Below are positions 3,738 to 51,558 of a stretch of DNA of 64,000 nt, piece by piece. This DNA comes from Candidatus Wildermuthbacteria bacterium (GTDB lineage Bacteria > Patescibacteriota > Minisyncoccia > Minisyncoccales > UBA10102). The translations under genes and the position numbers were made by a program. Each line of letters begins with the position of its first letter. Positions within the stretch are counted from its first letter, which is position 1. The stretch is from the NCBI GenBank assembly GCA_016181405.1, contig JACOZJ010000003.1:176126-240125 (forward strand). The letters are read 5' to 3'. Below the pieces are notes generated by a model. The model was given only the letters and a program-made list of their open reading frames with translations. It was not told where the DNA came from and did no database searches.

Positions 3738-3884
3738 TTAGAAATACTACCGAGAACTTTGGTAGTAATTACCCGTTACCCTATCATATTTGGGCGCATT
3801 TCGCAATCCAAAAAATAAACTGCGGCTGGGATTTTGATCCCAAGCCGCAGTTATCGTACGAACTGAAGGGTTTTCATGCCTTCT

Positions 3885-4088
3885 CTACCTTTTGGTAATT
3901 TGTATTGCAACCTTTAAATCAGTGGGGCTCTCGAATGCCTCTATGGGCAAATCATCGAGCATCGCAATCATGTCTTCGGACGCCCCTTTTCTGACTGCTT
4001 CATTCACGAGCGCTTCCTTTCTTATTGGATAGACAATATCACGCAGTACCCTTTCAGCCCGTTTCGCCTTGGGCATCAGGTACGGCAT
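3885..4088 (-). CDS. small hypothetical protein (DUF2795-like)
   Basis: 67-aa ORF. Confidence 0.35.
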   Translation of the reverse strand: MPYLMPKAKRAERVLRDIVYPIRKEALVNEAVRKGASEDMIAMLDDLPIEAFESPTDLKVAIQITKR

Positions 4089-4162
4089 AGAAGTATGGAA
4101 TGACGCATTATTATGCGATCGACCTTTGTGTCTTTATTATAAAGTATAAGCAAGTAACCCTG

Positions 4163-4576
4163 TCAAGAGTTTGTGTCTTCTTTTTCTAATGCAAGGCAGA
4201 CCGAATTGATGCAATAACGCTTGCCGCCCATGGGACCACCCGCCTTGCTTCGCAAATGGCGAGGCAGGTCATCAAACACATGGCCGAGATGCGAGCCGCA
4301 CCGCTTGCATTGCACTTCGGTCCTGCGCATACCGCCACTCAGATCCTCTTTGAGCTCGATATTCTTGAGATTCGCTGGTTCAGTAAAACTCGGCCAGCCA
4401 GTACCCGAATCAAACTTCGTATCAGAAGAAAACAGCTCAACTCCGCACGAGGCGCATTTGTACATTCCTTTCTCATGCGAATTCCAATACTTACCGGAAA
4501 AGGGCTGCTCGGTCCCCTTCTCCCGCATCACGTAATACTGCTCTGGCGTAAGTTTTTCCTTCCATTCATCTTTCAT
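4163..4576 (-). CDS. msrB: peptide-methionine (R)-S-oxide reductase MsrB
   Basis: CxxC...CxxC zinc site and [12 protein letters not shown] catalytic motif. Confidence 0.92.
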
Positions 4577-4580
4577 AGTG

Positions 4581-5120
4581 TTATTTTAGCAGATGGGCGT
4601 ATTTTTGCTGAAGTTTTTGGATTTTCGGGTCAATAACCATTTGGCAGTATGGCGCGTCTCTATTGCGATCGTAATACTCTCGGTGATAAACCTCTGCTTC
4701 GTAGAAATTGGTGAGCGGCTTTATCTCCGTAACGATTGCGCCTTTGTACACTCCTTCTTCTTCGAGCTGCCGTATAAACAATTGCGTAATATGTTCCTGT
4801 TCTTTCGTTGTATAGAATAGAGAAGAACGATATTGACCCCCAACATCCGGCCCCTGCCGGTTGACCTGCGTGGGATCGTGCGTGGAAAAAAACACTGAAA
4901 GAAGCTGTTCATATGAAATAACGCTCGGGTCATATTCAACTTTGATAACCTCTGCATACCCTGTCGTTCCGCTACATACCTGCTCGTATGTAGGATTCTT
5001 TGCGGTACCACCCGCATATCCCGATGTCACATTCTCAACGCCGCGCAATCTTTTGAATACTGCTTCGCCGCACCAGAAACACCCGCCTCCGAACACCGCA
5101 ATTTCGTTTTGTTTTTTCAT
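4581..5120 (-). CDS. msrA: peptide-methionine (S)-S-oxide reductase MsrA
   Basis: GGGCFWC active-site motif. Adjacent to msrB. Confidence 0.92.
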
Positions 5121-7410: not shown

Positions 7411-7949
7411 TTTGAGAAACGCACGGGCATAATAAGTCGGTCGTCGTGTTCGGGCAATCCGGAAGGATTATCTTTTTCGAAAACCAGTGTGCCCTGTTCA
7501 GTGTCTGGTGTTTCGAACTCAAGTGTAGCAAGAAATGGCACAAAATCTTGTGTCATCCATTCATCCTGCGCCTGTACTATAGCAACTGCGATTTCGTTCC
7601 CATCGCCGTCGAAAAGTCGGGCGGGAAAAGAAGCCTCGAAAAACCAAACTCCTCTTGCCTCACCTTCCAATACAAGCGGGCTCGCAATTGTTTGATTCGG
7701 CCGCGGATTAGTAACCCGAATCAAACCATTCTTTTCGAGTTCGTTACCAATGTATTCGGCGAATGTTTTGCCATCTGGCGTCTTACACTGCCTGGGATAG
7801 CTTTCCATCACAGGGTATCCGGCCGAAACACATTCTTGGAAGTTTGTGACCGCAGGCACATTCTCTTTATCCTGAAAAACCTTGTAGGAAATCACGGCGA
7901 CAACTGCGACAAGAATAAAAATCGCGATAATTAAAAATGGCTGTTTCAT
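7407..7949 (-). CDS. Gmad2 Ig-like/GerMN domain secreted protein
   Basis: N-terminal TM/signal anchor. C-terminal region resembles Gmad2. Confidence 0.4.
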   Translation of the reverse strand: MKQPFLIIAIFILVAVVAVISYKVFQDKENVPAVTNFQECVSAGYPVMESYPRQCKTPDGKTFAEYIGNELEKNGLIRVTNPRPNQTIASPLVLEGEARGVWFFEASFPARLFDGDGNEIAVAIVQAQDEWMTQDFVPFLATLEFETPDTEQGTLVFEKDNPSGLPEHDDRLIMPVRFSK

Positions 7950-8284
7950 ACTTCTCTTCGTGTATCTATGAGTTTGCTTTTATAGCGGCGAATTTCTGTC
8001 TTGAGCTTTTCTTTTACTTCGTCCAACGCCAAACGGATATCTGAGCCGGTAAATTCTGCGCGGAGCTGCTGGCCTCCTGGAACGGTTTCAAACATTGCTT
8101 CCGCATAGAACACATCACCCTTCCGGTGATGTCTGGTTGCCCGTGCAATCTCAACGAATACGCAAATCTCGTGATTCTTCTCGAAGCTTTTCAAAAACCG
8201 CTCCAAAGAGCCGATGCGCTTTCTTGCGTATTCCTCAATGTCTTCGGTCGGCTGGAATCTTGTATATTTTAATTCAACCTTCAT
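7946..8284 (-). CDS. hpf: ribosome hibernation promoting factor (RaiA/HPF family)
   Basis: 112 aa. MKVELKYTRFQPTEDIEEYARKRIGSLERF typical N-terminus. Confidence 0.85.
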   Translation of the reverse strand: MKVELKYTRFQPTEDIEEYARKRIGSLERFLKSFEKNHEICVFVEIARATRHHRKGDVFYAEAMFETVPGGQQLRAEFTGSDIRLALDEVKEKLKTEIRRYKSKLIDTRREV

Positions 8285-8325
8285 ACGTTATTACTATTAT
8301 ACCTGTATTTTCGAGTTAGTGTACA

Positions 8326-9027
8326 TCAATGGCCGAAACGTCTTTGGCGCTGCGCGTATTCGGCAAAAGCATCGTCTAAATCCTGTTCTTTAAAATCAGG
8401 CCAATACTTTGGGCAAAAGTAAAGCTCCGCATACGCTCCCTGCCAAAGGACAAAATTCGAAAACCGTTTTTCTCCTCCGGCGCGTATAATAAGATCGGGA
8501 TCGGGAAGGCCGGCGGTTGAAAGTCTTTGAGCAATAGTATCTTCTGTTATTTCTTCTGCCAGAATGCCTTCTTGGACGATTTTGCGTACGGCTTGTGTAA
8601 TATCCCACTTCCCTCCGTAGCTTACAGCCAAGTTTAAGTAAAATCGAGTGTTGTTTTTTGTCTGTTCCTCCACATGGGCAATAACTTTTTGCAAAGAAGG
8701 GCGCAATCGTTCCTTTTGCCCAATAATGCTTACGTGAATCCCCTCTCTCTGGAATTTCTCGATATCTTTGACATTTCCAAGATACTCTTCAAACAAATCC
8801 ATCAGGTAATGGACTTCTTCCTCTGGGCGATTCCAGTTCTCGCTCGAAAAGCCAAAAACGGTAATAACCGTTACCCCTCTTGCCCTGCACCAGTCCAGAA
8901 ACCCTTCAAAATTCTCCTTCCCCCTTCTATGGCCTTCAAGCGTTGGAAACCCCCGTTCTTTTGCCCAACGGCGATTCCCGTCGGGGAAAAGAACCACATG
9001 TTTAGGTATGTTATTCTGTTGTTCCAT
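8326..9027 (-). CDS. uppS: undecaprenyl diphosphate synthase (isoprenyl transferase)
   Basis: HVVLFPDGNRRWA and later RFSNFVLWQ...YAELYF motifs. Confidence 0.92.
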   Translation of the reverse strand: MEQQNNIPKHVVLFPDGNRRWAKERGFPTLEGHRRGKENFEGFLDWCRARGVTVITVFGFSSENWNRPEEEVHYLMDLFEEYLGNVKDIEKFQREGIHVSIIGQKERLRPSLQKVIAHVEEQTKNNTRFYLNLAVSYGGKWDITQAVRKIVQEGILAEEITEDTIAQRLSTAGLPDPDLIIRAGGEKRFSNFVLWQGAYAELYFCPKYWPDFKEQDLDDAFAEYAQRQRRFGH

Positions 9028-24956: not shown

Positions 24957-25433
24957 TTAACTTCCGATTATATAACGCTCTATGAGGGCTATTTTTTCTT
25001 TGTCGGCATGTTTTGTCTGCCGATAGCCGTCGTGCAAACAGTAGCAATACACGGCCAAATACTGTTCAAGATTTAGCTCATAAAAAGATATGCCGTTTTC
25101 CTCACTCTGTTTTAAGTCGCCAATGGTTAGGTTTACATCAGCAAGGTTGTTGTATTCTGCGAACGCGACTTTCTGGCCATTTCGAATAAACTCATGTTCT
25201 GAAACATCAGAAAGCTCAAAATCAAGCTCCTCGATTACGTTCTTTAGTTCTCCCCACTTCTCACCAACAAATTCATCCGGCACCAATATATCGATATCGT
25301 TTACTGTAATGGTCTCTTTAACCAAACGCGACAACCCAAGCGATCCATACAGCACAGGCACAACCCCAAGCTTTTTGTTTAACACTTCCGCAACCTCCCT
25401 AAATATTTCAAACTTCTTTTCCATCTCTATCAT
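24957..25433 (-). CDS. minimal nucleotidyltransferase (Pol-beta superfamily, MNT/Lnu-like)
   Basis: YGSLGLSRLVKETITVNDIDILV matches hG[GS]-x9-13-DhD of the NTase fold. 158 aa. Confidence 0.6.
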   Translation of the reverse strand: MIEMEKKFEIFREVAEVLNKKLGVVPVLYGSLGLSRLVKETITVNDIDILVPDEFVGEKWGELKNVIEELDFELSDVSEHEFIRNGQKVAFAEYNNLADVNLTIGDLKQSEENGISFYELNLEQYLAVYCYCLHDGYRQTKHADKEKIALIERYIIGS

Positions 25434-25978
25434 AGTTTTTGATAAATTTTTTCAGCGAGCTCGCGGGGATTAAAATACCCTGGGTTTTCCAATCGCAAAA
25501 GAGGTAAGCCGGCTTCTTGCAGAACACGCTCAACTTCCTCATCGCGCTCTTTTCTGTCTGGTCTTTCATGCGACCTATCGTCTAGCTCAATGGCGAGTTT
25601 TGGCGCAATATACTCTTTATCGCAAAGCACATAATCTACGGATTTTCGATCAATGTGGCTCCGCGCCCCACGCCAGCTCTGTCCTTTAACTCTATTTTCG
25701 ACAATACTCGGAAGATGTGCTTGAGGAAAAATATAGTACTTATCCCCTACCGCAGCCACAAGAGCATCATAACACTTATGCTCCGCCCGAGACATAAAAA
25801 ACTCTTTCCGCCCATACTCATACTTGCTTTGTTCAGCTTGGCCGCCTGCACTCTTTTTTGCCTTTACAAACCACAAAGCAAGCGCGATTCCACTCATTAA
25901 TAAAAGTCCTATTATGAGTATTGCAAAAAGAGGACCAAACAAACTTCCCAATATTCCCGAAACATCAAGTGTATTCAT
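25430..25978 (-). CDS. DUF2726-like (PD-(D/E)xK nuclease-fold) protein with N-terminal TM anchor
   Basis: HIDRKSVDYVLCDK...IELDDRSH pattern. Stop overlaps the NTase start by 4 bp. Confidence 0.5.
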   Translation of the reverse strand: MNTLDVSGILGSLFGPLFAILIIGLLLMSGIALALWFVKAKKSAGGQAEQSKYEYGRKEFFMSRAEHKCYDALVAAVGDKYYIFPQAHLPSIVENRVKGQSWRGARSHIDRKSVDYVLCDKEYIAPKLAIELDDRSHERPDRKERDEEVERVLQEAGLPLLRLENPGYFNPRELAEKIYQKL

Positions 25979-25996
25979 AGATTTTTATTTTCATTT

Positions 25997-26650
25997 TTAT
26001 GGCTCTAAAAACCAACTATTATTTTGAGAATCGTAGCTGTAGGTTTGGGGGAATTTCTTTTCTATCAAATTATCGTTTTCGTCTTTAACCTCGCAGTTGA
26101 TCTCTATTTTTATTCTTTTACCCTCTTGGGCGGACCGTTTTATCTCTTCCGGAATCTCCAAACCAGGCGCTTGAATACCGCTAAAAGCGTCAAGTTTCCA
26201 TGCTTGTGTACCACCGTAATAACCTTCGGGTACTTCTCTTTCTAAACTATCGGCAATAAACTTTATTTTTACATACGCCTTATACTTCTTTGGTTCACGA
26301 TTACCAATCCAAAACCATACTTTCCAGTCTCTCAAAAAATTGAAAGTAACAGTCCCAGGCAAAGAAGAAGCTACTCTGCACTCCACCAGTGCAATATTAC
26401 TGCTGGAGACAATCGCCTTTTTTGATTTTTCGTCCTCTCTTGGTAGCGGTAACTCATTGGTGGCTATTCCTTTTTTCTCCGATCTGTCAGGACCAAACTT
26501 TGCCCCATCTTTACCCAAAGACTCAAGATGTCTTATACGATCATCAATAGCACTCTTATGCCTAAAAATTATCAATATAGCCAAGGTCAAAATAACCACA
26601 GGCCATGATAATAGAATATTCAATATTTGTATAAATTCTGAAGTGCTCAT
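25997..26650 (-). CDS. membrane-anchored hypothetical protein
   Basis: 217 aa with N-terminal TM helix and no known motif. Confidence 0.5.
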   Translation of the reverse strand: MSTSEFIQILNILLSWPVVILTLAILIIFRHKSAIDDRIRHLESLGKDGAKFGPDRSEKKGIATNELPLPREDEKSKKAIVSSSNIALVECRVASSLPGTVTFNFLRDWKVWFWIGNREPKKYKAYVKIKFIADSLEREVPEGYYGGTQAWKLDAFSGIQAPGLEIPEEIKRSAQEGKRIKIEINCEVKDENDNLIEKKFPQTYSYDSQNNSWFLEP

Positions 26651-26814
26651 ATTGCGCTTATTACCTCGTAAATTTTCCCTTCCATCAACTCGATCAAGTG
26701 GCGGTTGGCGGCGATGATTTCTTCTTCCTTTTCCGTTTCGGCGACGAGCTGTTTTTGGATTTCGATTGACGGGAAAGGAATTTGTAAGTTTTTTACGAAT
26801 GATAAATTTGCCAT
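26647..26814 (-). pseudogene. remnant of a type I R-M specificity subunit (HsdS C-terminal conserved region, 55 codons)
   Basis: Translates to MANLSFVKNLQIPFPSIEIQKQLVAETEKEEEIIAANRHLIELMEGKI..., resembling the HsdS PLPPLxEQxxIV coiled-coil repeat. The TGA overlaps the ATG of the downstream ORF. Confidence 0.45.
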
Positions 26815-26839: not shown

Positions 26840-27484
26840 CTATCTTGCCAACTCGAAAATCTTTTTCACCAATGATGTCCGGGCATAAAATGCACGAGTA
26901 ATTGGCCTCTGCTCACCTGTACGTGGATTTATTCCTCCAGTTCCCTTTGTCCGTGGCTGCAACCATTTGCCATATTTACCAGTTAAGGCTTCGAAACCTT
27001 CTGTAATAAGCTTGCTGCGAATAAATTCGTAGTCGGCCTCTAATTCTTTGATGAGTTTATCGTCTTCGGCAAAGTCCAAGCTCACAACGTGGAGAAGTTT
27101 TGCGCTTTTGGCGTTTTTCTCGTTCCATTCAACTGCGCAAAACACAATTGCCTTAAGCTTTGCCCAAACATGACTTTCAAAAAACGAATGAGCTTTCAAC
27201 TCTTCCGGATTTATCATTGTTATTGCCATTGTTTCCTTTGGTGCAAGTTCTCCTCTGACAACCCGAAATGCAACTGATTTGAGTTCGTAAGTAAGTCCAT
27301 TCGGCGCTTTTGAAACATTCGTATCTAAGCCAGCTAGTCTCTCCAGAACGAGACCCTTCCAGCCCTTATTTTGCCTTCCAGTTTCGTAAGTCGTAATACC
27401 ATGTTCTAAGGCCAAAGCGCGTAGGTCATAACCAACATAGTTTTTCAAATTTTTTATCGCAGTAGCACGAGTTACAATCTTCAT
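26840..27484 (-). CDS. MutH/Sau3AI-family type II restriction endonuclease (probably GATC-specific)
   Basis: NKGWKGLVLERLAGL...LTYELKSV and C-terminal KYGKWLQPRTKG...RAFYARTSLVKK align with E. coli MutH (DKGWIGVLLEIWLG...ELKTI; HGEYLQIRPKA...RGFYLKKNF). Confidence 0.75.
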   Translation of the reverse strand: MKIVTRATAIKNLKNYVGYDLRALALEHGITTYETGRQNKGWKGLVLERLAGLDTNVSKAPNGLTYELKSVAFRVVRGELAPKETMAITMINPEELKAHSFFESHVWAKLKAIVFCAVEWNEKNAKSAKLLHVVSLDFAEDDKLIKELEADYEFIRSKLITEGFEALTGKYGKWLQPRTKGTGGINPRTGEQRPITRAFYARTSLVKKIFELAR

Positions 27485-27912
27485 ACGTTGAGTAGATTTA
27501 ATTCGATAGAATGTGGTTTTCTATTCTTTTCAAGATATTTCCTCCCATTCGACCCAAACAATACGATTGCGTCGTATCCCATTTCTCGCGCTTTTCGATA
27601 CATTTTTGCATCCCACCTAATACGTTCCTCATACCAACTTTCTTTATAATCACTGCCCGCTGAAAGAAATGTCTCGAATTCAGCAACCGTTTCGTCTGGA
27701 AATAAAACTTTAACTATTTCAAACTCTGAAAACCCATAAAGCGGATTTGAAATAGAAACTTTTTCCGGCACATCGTTTGGCCTGCCATAAAACTCTGCTT
27801 GATTGAAAGTAGAGGCAAAAAACTTGCCGCGCTTTTTATAAGCTTCTGGATCTCTTGGCGGCACATGCCACCACAGTGAGTTATTTATTTTGTTTATTAA
27901 AGTTTCTTTCAT
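27481..27912 (-). CDS. uncharacterised 143-aa protein translationally coupled between MTase and REase
   Basis: 4-bp overlaps with both neighbours. No HTH, MTase or nuclease motif recognised. Confidence 0.6.
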   Translation of the reverse strand: MKETLINKINNSLWWHVPPRDPEAYKKRGKFFASTFNQAEFYGRPNDVPEKVSISNPLYGFSEFEIVKVLFPDETVAEFETFLSAGSDYKESWYEERIRWDAKMYRKAREMGYDAIVLFGSNGRKYLEKNRKPHSIELNLLNV

Positions 27913-27914
27913 GT

Positions 27915-28784
27915 TTAGAGAAGTCTGCTATTTTGCTTTGTTCGCAACTCTTTGAAACGCTTTACCGATAAATCGAGATAATCTTTTTCTGTGTCTATGC
28001 CAACAAATTTTCGTGCATTGGTATATGCTGCCAAGCCGGTAGTGGAGCTGCCGGTAAAAGGATCTAAAACTATATCATCCTCATTTGTGCTTGCAAGCAC
28101 CACCCGTTTGAGCAAATCAAAAGGTTTTTGGGTTGGGTGCTTGCCAAATTTTTTCTCCCATGGAGAAGGAGTATTAATAGACCAAACTGAACGCATTTGT
28201 TTCCCAGGCTTTTTCAAAAAATCTTCGGGCCAATGTCCTTCTTTCATTTGCCTGTAATTAAATGTGTGTTTTGCCATTTTTTCTTTTCTCGCCCAAATCA
28301 AAGTTTCGTGACTAGCGGTGAAGTACCGACCACTTAAATTCGGCGAGGCGTTTGGTTTAAACCACGCAATATCATTTAAGATATGGTAGCCAGACATTTG
28401 CAAAGCAGCACCGCAAAGATATGCAGAATGATATGTGCCGCTAATCCATATTGAACCGTTTGGCTTTAATACTTTTCGGCAGGCCTGAATCCATTTCATG
28501 TGAAACTCAAAATCTTCTGCCGGGCCTTTACTTACATCCCACTCCCCTTTATTAACACTTACCCGCTTTCCTGCATGAACAGTAAATCCCCCATTTGAAA
28601 GAAAATACGGAGGATCCGCAAAAATCATATCTATGGAGTTTTCTGGCAACTCTTCAAGTAGCTTTAAACTATCGCCTTGATACAGCACAAAATTATCCTC
28701 GATAAAATAAGGTTTTACCTTAACATAGCGTAAAACTTTCCCTTCTTGCTTAGTTTTTGGAGTTTCAAAAGTCTGAACCGGCAT
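27915..28784 (-). CDS. beta-class N6-adenine/N4-cytosine DNA methyltransferase
   Basis: Motif IV IFADPPYF N-terminal to motif I LDPFTGSSTTG, the beta-group order. Paired with a MutH-like REase, suggesting a Dam-like GATC methylase. Confidence 0.85.
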   Translation of the reverse strand: MPVQTFETPKTKQEGKVLRYVKVKPYFIEDNFVLYQGDSLKLLEELPENSIDMIFADPPYFLSNGGFTVHAGKRVSVNKGEWDVSKGPAEDFEFHMKWIQACRKVLKPNGSIWISGTYHSAYLCGAALQMSGYHILNDIAWFKPNASPNLSGRYFTASHETLIWARKEKMAKHTFNYRQMKEGHWPEDFLKKPGKQMRSVWSINTPSPWEKKFGKHPTQKPFDLLKRVVLASTNEDDIVLDPFTGSSTTGLAAYTNARKFVGIDTEKDYLDLSVKRFKELRTKQNSRLL

Positions 28785-28924
28785 GCTTTTACTTTACCAA
28801 AAAATCGCCAATTTGGCGACTCCCATATTTTCCTGGTTCAAAACAGTTATATTCTCAAAAAAGAAGACGATCGGCCAAGAAGGCAAAGCGTCTGATTTGG
28901 GTTAGGATGCTACTGGCGAGAGAA

Positions 28925-47813: not shown

Positions 47814-48473
47814 TTAAAGCAGCTTTTGTTCAATAAAAGGCTTAAGGTCGGAAGCGACAAGGATACGCTGGATATCGCTGTGCGTAATCAGCGTTTGCGA
47901 CGGGCGAGTGTCATCGCCATTTTGACCGGCAATCGAAAAACCCACGTACTCAACTTTTTTCTTTTGACGAAGCCGTATCCAATCAATGGCCGGCACAAGA
48001 TCCCCATCGGAACTCACGATAATTGCGGTATCATATTTATCGTCTATCGCGCCCACGATTGCATCGGTGGCGAGCTTCACGTCAATGCCCTTTTCTCTCA
48101 TCCGCTCAAACTCTACTTCTTTTACCCCTTTTTTCAGCAATTCCTTGTAATTTTTGACCCTGTCATCAATAACGACTTTTTCTATTCGTGTGCGAAGCTT
48201 GCTCGTTTTGATCTCCCATCCACTTGAGCGCAATCGGGTAAATAAGGTGGTTTGCCGAGACATTGCCTGTTTGCTCCTTTTATCCCCTTCTCTTTCTCGT
48301 ACCGTGCCGACATAAAAACGTTTGCCGGCTTCGGTAATCGCCCGCCCATTCGCAAGGAATTCGGCGAATTTGTCGAACGCAAAATCAAGCTCTTGGATGC
48401 CTAATTTCCGTAAAACAAGGTGATGGAGATTCCCTCCGTCAATAAGTATCTGAACGCGTTCTGCCATACCCAT
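47814..48473 (-). CDS. NYN-domain (LabA/PIN-like) ribonuclease
   Basis: ERVQILIDGGNL...EKGIDVKLATDAI...AIIVSSDGDLVPAI acidic-residue pattern of NYN domains. Probable start MGMAERV; the longer ORF to 48599 would begin upstream of its own promoter. Confidence 0.7.
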   Translation of the reverse strand: MGMAERVQILIDGGNLHHLVLRKLGIQELDFAFDKFAEFLANGRAITEAGKRFYVGTVREREGDKRSKQAMSRQTTLFTRLRSSGWEIKTSKLRTRIEKVVIDDRVKNYKELLKKGVKEVEFERMREKGIDVKLATDAIVGAIDDKYDTAIIVSSDGDLVPAIDWIRLRQKKKVEYVGFSIAGQNGDDTRPSQTLITHSDIQRILVASDLKPFIEQKLL

Positions 48474-48545
48474 AGTATGCCATACGCGCGGGCAAAATAA
48501 AATCCTGCACACAGCCGAAGCTGGCGCAGGAGACTTTATGTATCT

Positions 48546-48574
48546 AGTATAGCCGACCCTCAAACCAATGTCAA
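48546..48574 (-). promoter_or_regulatory. duplicate of the rRNA promoter (TTGACA-N17-TATACT), copy B, driving the NYN gene
   Basis: About 60-bp near-identical repeat of 47731-47790, including -35, spacer, -10 and UP region. Confidence 0.65.
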
Positions 48575-48698
48575 GCGCAGCGAAAATCCCAATTTTCAAT
48601 GCTCAATTTTCAATCTCCGCCAAAGGCGGATCCGCCTCGGACGGAAAATCCCAATGCCTTAATGCTCAAAACAAAATCGTCTGGCCCATATCTCTATC

Positions 48699-49187
48699 TT
48701 AGCTAATACGAGGCCATTTAGTTAAAAGCTCTTGCTTAATACTTCTATATCTGTGAAAAATATTATCAAAATCTTGAATGATTGCTTCAAGCGCAGAGAC
48801 TTCGAGGGAAGGACTTTCTAGTAAACGATGCATAAGTTTATTTCTTTTCTTGTTAAATGCAGAAAGACACCTTATAAACTCCTCCCTATCAGGAAAATTA
48901 AACTCTTGAAGATCTGCGATCATTCCTCCGAGAGTTTTCTTCTTCATGCACTCAGAGATTGGCCAAGAAATTACTCCATTGAACTTCTCGTATGTCCCAA
49001 CTTTAATCATGCGGTGCAGATTTCTTAAGATATCACTTGCGACATATTCGACGTGATTCACAAGGAGTAAAATTGCGGTTAACTTCTCCTCACTCGTATC
49101 TCCACGAGCATATTCTCTTGCCTTCTTTAAGCTTTCATTCAGGAGATCGATATCTGTATGTCCGATCGGCTCAAAATCGCTGGGCAT
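48699..49187 (-). CDS. HEPN-motif protein (candidate RNase)
   Basis: All-alpha 162-aa protein with Rx4H motif in FNKKRNKLMHRLLE (R-N-x-x-x-H). Confidence 0.45.
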   Translation of the reverse strand: MPSDFEPIGHTDIDLLNESLKKAREYARGDTSEEKLTAILLLVNHVEYVASDILRNLHRMIKVGTYEKFNGVISWPISECMKKKTLGGMIADLQEFNFPDREEFIRCLSAFNKKRNKLMHRLLESPSLEVSALEAIIQDFDNIFHRYRSIKQELLTKWPRIS

Positions 49188-49212
49188 AAAATAAGTAATT
49201 ATTTACATTGGG

Positions 49213-51558
49213 TTATGGTTCAACCTCCAAATCACTTAACGACACAATCATTGGAAGTAGAGTTGGCGAAATCGCTCTGGAAAACATAGCTATTTTTTCG
49301 TATATTGAAACATCGTTATTTTTCTCCGGAGCTTCCCCTTTAAGTTTCTTGCTCTTGTTATCGAAATCAAGCAATGAGATACCGAGTAATACCATACCGT
49401 ATTTAAATCTTGCTTCTAAGAGTTTCGGTTCAATTTTTGAATTCTCCTTAATTTCCATTTGCAGGTAGACATTATCCATATTGATGTAGAAGTCATACCC
49501 TGCTTCTTCTCCTCCATCCACAACCTTCAATGCACTCTTCTCATCAAATTTATGTTTTTCCCACTCATTTCTTCGCACCTCATACGCATGAGGAATATCG
49601 AGGTAGATTGGTTTTTCCCTATCTTTTCCAGTATCTTTACCTGACGGTTTTTTTCTTTTTCCGTGCCCTCCATTTGTTTCCTGTTGTGGTTTATCCACCT
49701 CAATACAAAATTCACTCGAGAATGAATCAATCCTGGAAATATCTATAACTCCAGTTCGAAAACACAATTTGTTTCCGATTTCAGATTGCTGTGGTATTCC
49801 AATCGTCAGTGTCGCAAGACCATTCCACAGATTGAGTGAGTAATCTTCAATAGGAGATTCGTCTATTTCAAGCGTTAATTCTCCGGGATCTTTATCTCTC
49901 TTAAAATAATCATTTTCAGCGTCTGTCTCATATTGGATTCGGAACCGCCTATTTATGGGACAGTGCTTCGGTTCTTTAGAGGGATGCTGTTTGGACAATT
50001 TGAAGTAACTTGGAAATGTCTTACCCTTAAATTTTTCTTGTTCTCCTGCGCCAGTAAGTTTGAACGGGTTCTTAATCCTTACCCCTTGCATGAAGAGACT
50101 CGAAAGAGATGGGGATTTCTTGATTATATTTTCCAATACATCTGCCAGTGGCTTCGAATCTTGTAGCTTATGTTCTACTAACTCTCTTTTTCTCTTTTCC
50201 CTTAGCTCCCTGAGTCCTGGATGGTTTTTAATTATATCTTCCATCTTTCTTTCGATTTCGCTTTGAAGCGGTCCACCACCAAGGCGGTCTCGGCTGTTCA
50301 TAAATAAGTCTTCCTGCATCCTTCTATCAATTCTTGAACAATCTACGATCACTAAAATACTATCAGACAAATAGTTCATGCCAACTACCTTTCGTTCAAA
50401 GAAATATCTCGGTAGCGAACCGTGTGTCTGTCCATTGACAATAAAAATTATCCCCTCTTCTGTAGCATAAGTTTCTCTTTTTCCTACTTTAAAAGCATAT
50501 ATTGAATAGTCCATCCTTTGACCCTGAACAGTCATTTCTCCTGACCCAGGGAAACCATCTTCAAGATTTTCTCTCTTATCTTCATCTAACCTTACGCTTA
50601 ACCCCGAGAGTGTTTTTATGGGACTTTTTCTAAATCTAGTATCAGCAACCTTTATGGGTAGCGCAATCTCTGGCATTAAAAGGGAAAGTCTATTGTGCAA
50701 GTGGCGAGTAGCATCTGATCGCAAGCGCCCAGTACTCATTTGGTAATCGTAAATTTTTATAAAAGTTCCATGCTCAATAGATTTTTTATATGCATCAAGA
50801 TCGTCATTTGGCAGTAAGGGAAGTGTCTTAGAAGTGAAAGAAAGTATTTCCCCTGCGGGAGCAAGATAAGTAAATACAGAGCTTCGCATTTGGCCAGTTG
50901 GCGGAATCCGTCTGATTATTGTCATTCCCCATAGATCTTTTTCCGTTTTATTTTTAATTTCTCGATTTCTTCTTGAAACTATTAATTGTAAATTATGCTC
51001 TGGGCTTCCGAACCTAAAAACTCCTGTCCCGCCCATACCAAACTTACCTTGAACAAATTGAATCTTGCTTTTATTCCCTCTGTTTAGAGAAAGAAAGGTA
51101 TCAAGAAAACGTTCGGGTGATTGACCCTCTCCTAAATCAACAAGCGAATAGGAAGGGCTAGCTTTGCTTCCACTTGCAACAAGAAAAATATTTTCAGCTA
51201 AGTTAGATCTCGCACTCGCGTCAATGCTAGAAAGCTTGCCGTCATAAATTCCAAAGTACTCTTTTTGCGCTTCCGCAATACTCTTGGGAGCTTCTTGGCT
51301 TGTTGGTTCTATGCCTCGCGATAAGCATTCTTTCATCAACATTGCATCTACGGAATTGATGATCTTCTCAACAAGTGCTGTATCGGGGGCACTTTGTTGA
51401 TTCCCAATTGTTGACCAGTTCCCTGAACTCTCATCAACTTCTTTCCACACTTTCTTGTCTGACCATAAGCCCGATTTGCTCAGGATTTCCACAACGGTCT
51501 TTTCTGTTTCTGCCTGTATCAGCGCAAGTGCCAATTTTTTGATCTCTTCATTATTCAT
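49213..51558 (-). CDS. GHKL-superfamily (Bergerat-fold, MORC/Hsp90-like) ATPase, 781 aa, large uncharacterised C-terminal region
   Basis: N-box EKIINSVDA. G1 box VDLGEGQ (DxGxG). G2 box GKFGMGGTGVF (compare Hsp90/MORC GQFGVGFYS). Confidence 0.55.
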   Translation of the reverse strand: MNNEEIKKLALALIQAETEKTVVEILSKSGLWSDKKVWKEVDESSGNWSTIGNQQSAPDTALVEKIINSVDAMLMKECLSRGIEPTSQEAPKSIAEAQKEYFGIYDGKLSSIDASARSNLAENIFLVASGSKASPSYSLVDLGEGQSPERFLDTFLSLNRGNKSKIQFVQGKFGMGGTGVFRFGSPEHNLQLIVSRRNREIKNKTEKDLWGMTIIRRIPPTGQMRSSVFTYLAPAGEILSFTSKTLPLLPNDDLDAYKKSIEHGTFIKIYDYQMSTGRLRSDATRHLHNRLSLLMPEIALPIKVADTRFRKSPIKTLSGLSVRLDEDKRENLEDGFPGSGEMTVQGQRMDYSIYAFKVGKRETYATEEGIIFIVNGQTHGSLPRYFFERKVVGMNYLSDSILVIVDCSRIDRRMQEDLFMNSRDRLGGGPLQSEIERKMEDIIKNHPGLRELREKRKRELVEHKLQDSKPLADVLENIIKKSPSLSSLFMQGVRIKNPFKLTGAGEQEKFKGKTFPSYFKLSKQHPSKEPKHCPINRRFRIQYETDAENDYFKRDKDPGELTLEIDESPIEDYSLNLWNGLATLTIGIPQQSEIGNKLCFRTGVIDISRIDSFSSEFCIEVDKPQQETNGGHGKRKKPSGKDTGKDREKPIYLDIPHAYEVRRNEWEKHKFDEKSALKVVDGGEEAGYDFYINMDNVYLQMEIKENSKIEPKLLEARFKYGMVLLGISLLDFDNKSKKLKGEAPEKNNDVSIYEKIAMFSRAISPTLLPMIVSLSDLEVEP

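Follow-up and report, generated by a model that had tools for sequence, protein, structure and literature searches.

Restriction-modification (R-M) systems are among the best-studied defence systems, and their accessory genes are thought to be few, namely controllers, Vsr and specificity subunits. The DpnII, LlaDCHI and MboI cassettes consist of three genes aimed at GATC, including a beta-class DpnA-like methylase, and to our knowledge the classical cassettes of this kind do not carry a protein resembling ADP-ribosyltransferases (ARTs). Sau3AI has two MutH-like domains and a C5 methylase partner. Here we describe a locus of three genes, which we call M, X and R, in a stretch of 64,000 nucleotides (the window) from contig JACOZJ010000003.1 (positions 176,126 to 240,125) of a Candidatus Wildermuthbacteria bacterium. 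The source belongs to the candidate phyla radiation (CPR), and identical proteins have been deposited under both Candidatus Curtissbacteria and Candidatus Wildermuthbacteria. Like the DpnII, LlaDCHI and MboI cassettes, the locus has three genes putatively aimed at GATC, with a beta-class methylase among them. Unlike these cassettes, it has one methylase instead of two, a MutH-type nuclease, and an ART-like extra gene, X. The locus is very likely an R-M cassette and X is probably a relative of the ART fold, whose homologs adjoin a methylase gene in most of the loci compared.

The three open reading frames (ORFs) are co-directional on the minus strand in the order M-X-R (Table 1), with a beta-class methylase at one end and a MutH-type nuclease at the other, and an earlier note made from the sequence alone was right in calling them a Type II R-M operon. 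It had placed 4-bp overlaps on both sides of X. The stop codon of X and the start codon of R do share 4 bp (ATGA), so that X is translationally coupled to R, but the stop codon of M (TAA at 27917-27915) is separated by a 2-nt spacer from the ATG of X at 27912. The GC content of 26840-28830 is 40.3%, as compared to 46.6% for the whole window, and not about 37% as had been given. GenBank annotates M as a site-specific DNA methyltransferase and both X and R as hypothetical proteins. No notable direct or inverted repeats flank the locus in the window, and no tRNA lies nearby.

The genomic context of X was compared in 127 loci from genomes, viral contigs and metagenomes, in which neighbouring genes were mapped by similarity to representatives identified with Pfam and PADLOC. 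Linkage was counted over 84 distinct X genes that are at least 50% identical to X of the window. A homolog of M (51-73% identical) lies immediately upstream of X in 51 of the 84, most often with a 4-bp overlap, and a Dam-type methylase (PF02086) lies immediately downstream of X in 15. Overall, a methylase gene adjoins X in 68/84. The contig ends upstream of X in 8 of the remaining 16, and most of the others still adjoin one of the nuclease types described below. The junctions mostly range from -4 to +10 nt. Two operon types are seen, M(beta)-X-R and X-Dam-R, and X is the first gene of the latter. A second subfamily of X (40-48% identical) has a methylase next to it in all five loci examined. 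D12, MT-A70, PF01555 and type III Mod types are represented among these methylases, and the loci lie inside conjugative or integrated elements with TrwC/TrwB, an integrase, ArdC-N, DndB and a Tad2-like gene.

The nuclease gene which follows X or X-Dam belongs to at least seven unrelated families. The MutH-like type of the window is found in 12 other distinct loci in the M-X-R order, and in three more with an extra 186-aa gene. The other types are the DpnII family (PF04556), a BglII-like nuclease (PF09195), AlwI (PF09491; after a Dam-Dam fusion, in an element with resolvase and relaxase), the PADLOC REase_II types PDLC03513 (DUF6996/6997) and PDLC03457, and a 174-aa PD-ExK candidate. X proteins from loci with the same nuclease type are no more alike than others (identity of 0.60 vs. 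0.59). This independence of X identity from nuclease type suggests that the nuclease has been repeatedly exchanged around a persistent methylase-X pair. The identities of X and M are weakly correlated (r = 0.20, Mantel p ~0.007), and this correlation was too weak for us to adopt co-evolution of M and X. It had been left open whether the M-X-R arrangement is common and already characterised. The counts above show that it is common, but its copies are annotated as hypothetical, and the arrangement is apparently uncharacterised. Full-text literature searches (REBASE not covered) gave no account of R-M operons with an ART-like gene or of such a methylase-ART pairing. Neither is mentioned in the paper on polyvalent proteins (PMC5512222), in a survey of viral NAD and ADP-ribose metabolism or in a 2025 review of restriction-modification biology.

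Several of these loci have features of their own. A viral contig (L042, 1170-5356) carries a serine recombinase, X, a 654-aa Dam-Dam fusion and an AlwI-family nuclease, with a relaxase-like gene adjoining; here a mobile element carries X within a Type IIS system of GGATC type. A conserved extra gene of 186 aa stands between X and the MutH-like nuclease in L003 (8422-8982), L063, L085, L086 and L105, and has no match in Pfam or PADLOC. In L023 and L115, the cassette directly follows the 3' end of a tRNA gene, which lies immediately upstream of M, as is expected for an integrated mobile island.

X itself has no match in Pfam, NCBIfam, PADLOC or PHROGs, which bears out the observation that it lacks methylase, helix-turn-helix (HTH) and nuclease motifs. 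A sequence-profile search of the PDB with the X family gave just a short 'GYDSIVLL' match to a SPOR domain, which we rejected as spurious. We collected 240 homologs at 55-72% identity and 811 clusters by profile search, all annotated as hypothetical and without a Pfam domain. They come from CPR groups, Elusimicrobia, Planctomycetota, Proteobacteria, Acidobacteriota, Chlamydiae and other phyla. When 1.8 billion representatives were searched exhaustively, the X domain was also found inside giant proteins of 900-4300 aa. X and the polyvalent-type X domain gave no tblastn match to the INPHARED phages or PLSDB plasmids, so the family is seemingly confined to uncultivated lineages. With a median pI of 9.1-9.8, the X family is basic.

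The AlphaFold2 model of X, made from a 90-sequence alignment, is an alpha/beta fold of high confidence (pLDDT 93.8, pTM 0.88). Its top Foldseek matches in BFVD (E 2e-4, probability ~1, TM 0.4-0.5) are proteins annotated as ART-PolyVal, proteins of the N4-like virion RNA polymerase (vRNAP) type, and MuF/polyvalent proteins. Independently of this, the ART-PolyVal profile PF18760 is matched by 9 of 38 diverse X-family members (E 7e-4 for the best to 0.09), and every other Pfam family by at most one of the 38. The PF18760 matches are colinear, with residues 27-110 of X falling onto positions 27-115 of the 140 in the profile. X-type and canonical domains also occur side by side. A 3319-aa viral polyvalent protein (L040, 6417-16373) contains a GNAT domain near residue 210, an X-type domain at 528-656 and a canonical ART-PolyVal domain from 846 (E 1e-23). 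The same protein has a third, weak X-like copy at 2058-2149.

Comparison of the X-type and canonical copies of this protein shows four motifs in the same order: WWH in X corresponds to VYHG, GKFFASTxxxAEFY to GIWFTSSxxxARFF, SNPL to ENPL, and GYDAIV to GRDGII. Position 16 of X is H (R in 6/38) and position 137 is E (D in 2/38), both in predicted strands, and S34-T/S35 is conserved, also in a predicted strand. At sequence identities of 30-70%, H/R16, S34, E/D137, R28, D101 and D114 vary little or not at all. Residues 16 and 137 appear to be as in active ARTs, and H16, S34-T35 and E137 are a candidate triad. This pattern is reminiscent of the H-Y-D arrangement of ART-PolyVal described by Iyer et al. 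(2017, PMC5512222). According to the same paper, no modifying enzyme is more common in polyvalent proteins than the ART domain, which is often repeated.

X resembles ART-PolyVal in its length (~140 residues) and apparently also in the H of strand 1, the S/T-rich strand 2 and the acidic residue of the last strand. The two also share their setting, as X-type domains lie in polyvalent proteins beside GNAT, canonical ART-PolyVal, portal, Zn-peptidase, SNF2 and Dam domains. X differs from ART-PolyVal in having a long helical insert (63-110) and E instead of D at the last position, in scoring below the gathering threshold, and in being mostly a stand-alone gene in chromosomal R-M operons. Among the fusions, a 3638-aa polyvalent protein (P0167) has X directly N-terminal to a Dam domain, P0139 combines an X-type domain with SNF2 and LPD38, and in L044 an X-type domain lies between a lambda-type portal and a Zn-peptidase. 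Combinations with ParB-like nuclease, GNAT or ART-PolyVal are also found. In X-Dam-R operons, the Bro-N DNA-binding domain (PF02498) is fused N-terminal to X (P0114, P0121, L024 at 7515-8420 and L074 at 3821-4609). A methylase domain was present in just one of 13 polyvalent proteins scanned.

Several observations weigh against an ART assignment or against an ART-type function of X. Foldseek against PDB gave nothing significant for X, with ART toxins at a TM of just ~0.3. No X-family member reaches the gathering score of PF18760 (the best has 20.7 vs. 31.2 bits), and X of the window matches neither PF18760 nor any other Pfam family. Comparisons of the X profile with single canonical ART-PolyVal copies by hhalign and hmmsearch were not significant; neither a search for homologs nor tblastn against phages with the P0211 ART-PolyVal segment yielded the canonical set wanted for profile-profile comparison, as both found nothing. 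For this reason motif comparison was used instead, and the putative correspondence of catalytic residues is one of motifs and not of superposed structures. No gene for removal of ADP-ribose (macro, NADAR or ARH) is linked to X in the window and five Pfam-annotated loci. The window's own X is nearly neutral, with a pI of 7.9. Moreover, the restriction of X to GATC-type systems could be historical inertia and not function. Given the scores below the gathering threshold and the non-significant profile comparisons, we treat X as a remote relative of ART-PolyVal and not as a member. The profile and structure search which had been recommended for this 143-aa protein thus gave no direct profile match, but it did reveal a remote relationship with ART-PolyVal through the family and the structure. 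We know of no ART-PolyVal member with a demonstrated substrate.

Judged by its sequence, M is a beta-class N6/N4 methylase, here taken to be N6-adenine-specific, with CcrM and DpnA as its nearest relatives. It matches PF01555 (E 4.9e-57; 193.9 bits vs. a cut-off of 26.7) and PADLOC MTase_II (E 3.8e-98). Among the NCBIfam models the CcrM N-terminal domain fits best, though the score is far below its cut-off (E 2e-69), and the closest solved structures are CcrM (6pbd, E 1.7e-54) and a Helicobacter enzyme named DpnA (5hek, E 2e-29). DPPY at residue 57 precedes FTGSSTT at residue 243, so that M carries both the catalytic and the AdoMet-binding motif of a Type II methylase. The beta-class order of the motifs had been recognised correctly, but the second motif had been written as FxGSGTT. 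The DNA-binding domain at the C-terminus of CcrM is missing from M; the match spans positions 6-256 of 350 in CcrM and residues 16-257 of 366 in the solved chain. The 64-kb window contains no second M or Dam homolog. We considered the locus as a DpnII-type system (dpnM, dpnA, dpnB) and rejected this for want of a second methylase and because the nuclease is of MutH type. Sister X loci do have a DpnII-family nuclease, and some cassettes also have a Dam-type methylase, which are further likenesses to the DpnII, LlaDCHI and MboI cassettes.

R has a known restriction fold and overlaps the preceding gene by 4 bp, which makes it the adjacent endonuclease of a Type II system. It matches Pfam MutH (E 1.4e-9; 38.2 bits, above the gathering score of 23) and PADLOC REase_II (E 2.7e-6), and falls far below the cut-offs of NCBIfam MutH (E 1e-14; 54.1 bits vs. 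an equivalog cut-off of 243) and Sau3AI (E 1e-11). R aligns with E. coli MutH (structures 2azo and 1azo) over residues 14-183, including the E-x-K motif (E-L-K), and the alignment with MutH reported earlier is therefore sound. R resembles MutH and the N-terminal domain of Sau3AI in size, in near full-length alignment, and in the E-x-K and E56 equivalents. E48, E67 and K69 of R are conserved, and the equivalents of MutH E56, E77 and K79 are kept in 19 homologs. In contrast, Asn invariably takes the place of the catalytic MutH residue D70, in the motif PN-x4-ExK (19/19 aligned R homologs, including L015, L028, L039, L048 and L050). Asn at this position is an unusual active-site variant for a PD-(D/E)xK enzyme. 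The invariant Asn together with the retained E56, E77 and K79 equivalents argues that R is a distinct, selected branch of the MutH family. R as MutH proper was rejected on its score and on the incomplete D70-E77-K79 triad. R also differs from MutH in being encoded in an R-M operon and in coming from a phylum without Dam-directed mismatch repair.

The GATC specificity which had been proposed for the locus has gained indirect support. Close homologs of M, with 62-73% identity, occur together with DpnII-family nucleases in other loci, where the same X gene joins the two. Because MutH and Sau3AI are GATC enzymes and homologs of M are partners of DpnII-family nucleases, we infer that M and R share GATC as a putative recognition site. 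The window has 192 GATC sites, somewhat fewer than expected (observed/expected 0.81), which puts GATC at rank 9 of 256 tetramers. We did not take so mild a depletion as a sign of activity.

Our best explanation of these data, to which we give about as much credence as doubt, is a mobile GATC-directed R-M cassette with an ART-type X that acts together with the methylase. M, a DpnA/CcrM-like enzyme, would methylate adenine in GATC and thereby protect host DNA, and R, a single-domain MutH-type nuclease, would nick or cut unmethylated GATC. X, encoded on its own, is probably a distant relative of ART-PolyVal, a domain which enters cells along with the DNA of phages and conjugative elements. It may use NAD+ to ADP-ribosylate a target common to all nuclease contexts, either DNA or a DNA-bound factor of host or invader. 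In this way X might support the element on entry or in defence, by helping its establishment, by countering defence or by reinforcing restriction. The data show which genes are present, the linkage of X to methylases and the kinship of its fold; its catalysis, target and biological role are inferred from them. That X is catalytically active is slightly more probable than the opposite. Its role as an NAD+-using effector that works with the methylase when element DNA enters or defends the cell is more tentative. The partner of X is a methylase of either class and never a particular nuclease, which makes a specific interaction of X with R or M proteins unlikely and suggests a target common to all contexts, namely DNA or a general factor at DNA. 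The Bro-N fusions and the basic pI of the family also point to action near DNA.

The most attractive specific variant of this explanation, itself unlikely, is that X is a second restriction-like effector, a DNA ADP-ribosyltransferase acting on unmethylated GATC DNA, with methylation by M as the immunity. It could take the form of a single-stranded target as with DarT, or of capping of the ends made by R, and the polyvalent copies would cripple the unmethylated host chromosome. Such an enzyme would account for the tie of X to two unrelated methylase classes and to no particular nuclease, for the absence of a linked antitoxin or hydrolase gene, for Dam-X pairs without an evident nuclease (L128 and L131), and for a basic family with fusions of X to Dam and to Bro-N. 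M is also of DpnA type, which is reported to act on single strands. However, X-Dam-R operons put X ahead of the supposed immunity gene, most cassettes still have a classical nuclease, the scarcity of methylase domains in the scanned polyvalent proteins does not fit, and nothing indicates that a 143-aa ART-like protein reads GATC. If X acts on DNA, it may work like DarT of DarTG, a small ART-fold enzyme of phage defence whose target is a short sequence motif in DNA. X differs from it in lacking a detectable sequence or structure match to DarT and a DarG-like macro-domain partner, its partner being a methylase. The stricter statement that X is an NAD+-dependent DNA ADP-ribosyltransferase blocked on GATC-containing DNA by N6-adenine methylation, such that methylase and X form an R-M-like pair in which ADP-ribosylation replaces cleavage, we hold to be improbable.

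Less likely than methylation as immunity, and in our view doubtful, is a non-catalytic role in which the ART-like fold of X was recruited for binding of DNA or nucleotide and might, for instance, bring the methylase onto GATC DNA that is incoming, single-stranded or hemimethylated. Such an accessory would suit the tight coupling of the X and methylase genes, the position of X N-terminal to Dam in one fusion protein, and the truncation of M relative to CcrM. X as the missing C-terminal domain of CcrM was rejected, however, for there is no sequence or structure match between the two. The near-invariant H/R16, S34, E/D137, R28, D101 and D114 are typical of an active site, 12 of the 13 scanned polyvalent proteins have the domain without a methylase, and an accessory would have to serve two structurally different methylase classes.

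X might instead ADP-ribosylate a host protein, as a counter-defence enzyme like AcrIF11 or T4 Alt, its methylase link reflecting the clustering of anti-defence genes. We think this improbable as well, even though ArdC-N, a Tad2-like gene, orphan methylases and relaxase genes are found near X, ART-PolyVal is predicted to modify proteins (PMC5512222), and AcrIF11 is an ART precedent. Clustering alone leaves unexplained the start/stop overlaps with the methylase in dozens of chromosomal R-M cassettes, as well as the Bro-N and Dam fusions. This proposal also overlaps with our best explanation, in which the target of X stays general.

That X is a regulator delaying nuclease expression at establishment, analogous to a C protein and perhaps acting at the palindrome upstream of M, is very improbable: X is always upstream of the nuclease gene and palindromes do precede M here and in L022 and L029, but X has an alpha/beta fold with no HTH family match, its domain is embedded in virion-packaged polyvalent proteins, and the palindrome of the window, followed by a terminator-like T-run, is not conserved in 35 homologous cassettes. 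We rejected X as a diverged C protein on these grounds, and it proved not to be a methylase fragment either. The locus is like C-protein-controlled Type II systems in having a small third gene upstream of the nuclease gene, and differs from them in having no HTH in X, no conserved C-box-like operator, and an X family which is also a virion-protein domain.

The palindrome TCGCCAAnTTGGCGA is real, and it lies 21-35 nt upstream of the ATG of M, not 17-31 bp as had been noted. Its proposed role as an operator did not hold, since the palindrome has no counterpart upstream of 35 homologous M genes. Its RNA folds into a 9-bp stem with a 3-nt loop, followed by a U-run, and the element is more likely the terminator of the upstream 88-aa ORF than an operator. 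A scan for consensus terminators did not call it, and the stretch from the upstream ORF to M contains no promoter-like site. Palindromes of the 7+7 form occur in the window at ~0.06 per 100 nt, so that TCGCCAAnTTGGCGA is just marginally unexpected. In the related cassettes L022 and L029, a 21-nt perfect palindrome, ATAGTGATATAATATCACTAT, covers a TATAAT-like box ~20-45 nt upstream of the M homolog, and is a better operator candidate than the palindrome of the window.

Other features of the window lie outside the cassette (Table 1). The 55-aa ORF directly after R matches in PADLOC just the C-terminal end of HsdS and Type IIG specificity proteins (E 5e-5 to 1e-4), and has a 4-nt overlap with the next ORF. 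It looks like what is left of a degraded Type I system and suggests that the locus lies in a defence island. The low GC content extends downstream of R over three more ORFs (24957-26650). A second low-GC stretch (GC 0.385-0.406), adjoined by a 261-aa ORF, may be another acquired island.

Table 1. Positions of the cassette and of other features in the 64-kb window
Feature	Position	Strand	Description
M	28784..27915	-	289 aa, beta-class N6-adenine DNA methyltransferase, putative GATC specificity
X	27912..27481	-	143 aa, stand-alone ART-PolyVal-like protein, candidate triad H16 / S34-T35 / E137
R	27484..26840	-	214 aa, MutH-family endonuclease, predicted to cut or nick unmethylated GATC
Palindrome TCGCCAAnTTGGCGA	28819-28805		perfect 7+1+7, T6 next on coding strand
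55-aa ORF	26647-26814	-	similar to C-terminal end of specificity proteins
217-aa ORF	26650..25997	-	no family match
DUF2726 protein	25978..25430	-	PF10881 (E 1e-27), weak REase-like matches, N-terminal membrane segment
158-aa ORF	25433..24957	-	no family match
Second low-GC stretch	48699-51558	-	781-aa and 162-aa ORFs, unknown family
261-aa ORF	47814..48599		adjoins second low-GC stretch

These results describe a widespread and strongly conserved ART-like third component of R-M systems which has gone unannotated, and which accompanies the methylase through exchanges of the nuclease among at least seven families. With three small genes, the system is directly testable. An active X would connect NAD+-dependent modification with the discrimination of self from non-self by methylation, and would provide a first functional handle on the ART-PolyVal domains in the polyvalent proteins of phages and plasmids. 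If X does act as a DNA ADP-ribosyltransferase blocked by methylation, it would be a second effector for the cassettes, and for phages, as a domain of injected polyvalent proteins, a means of disabling a host chromosome that is unmethylated.

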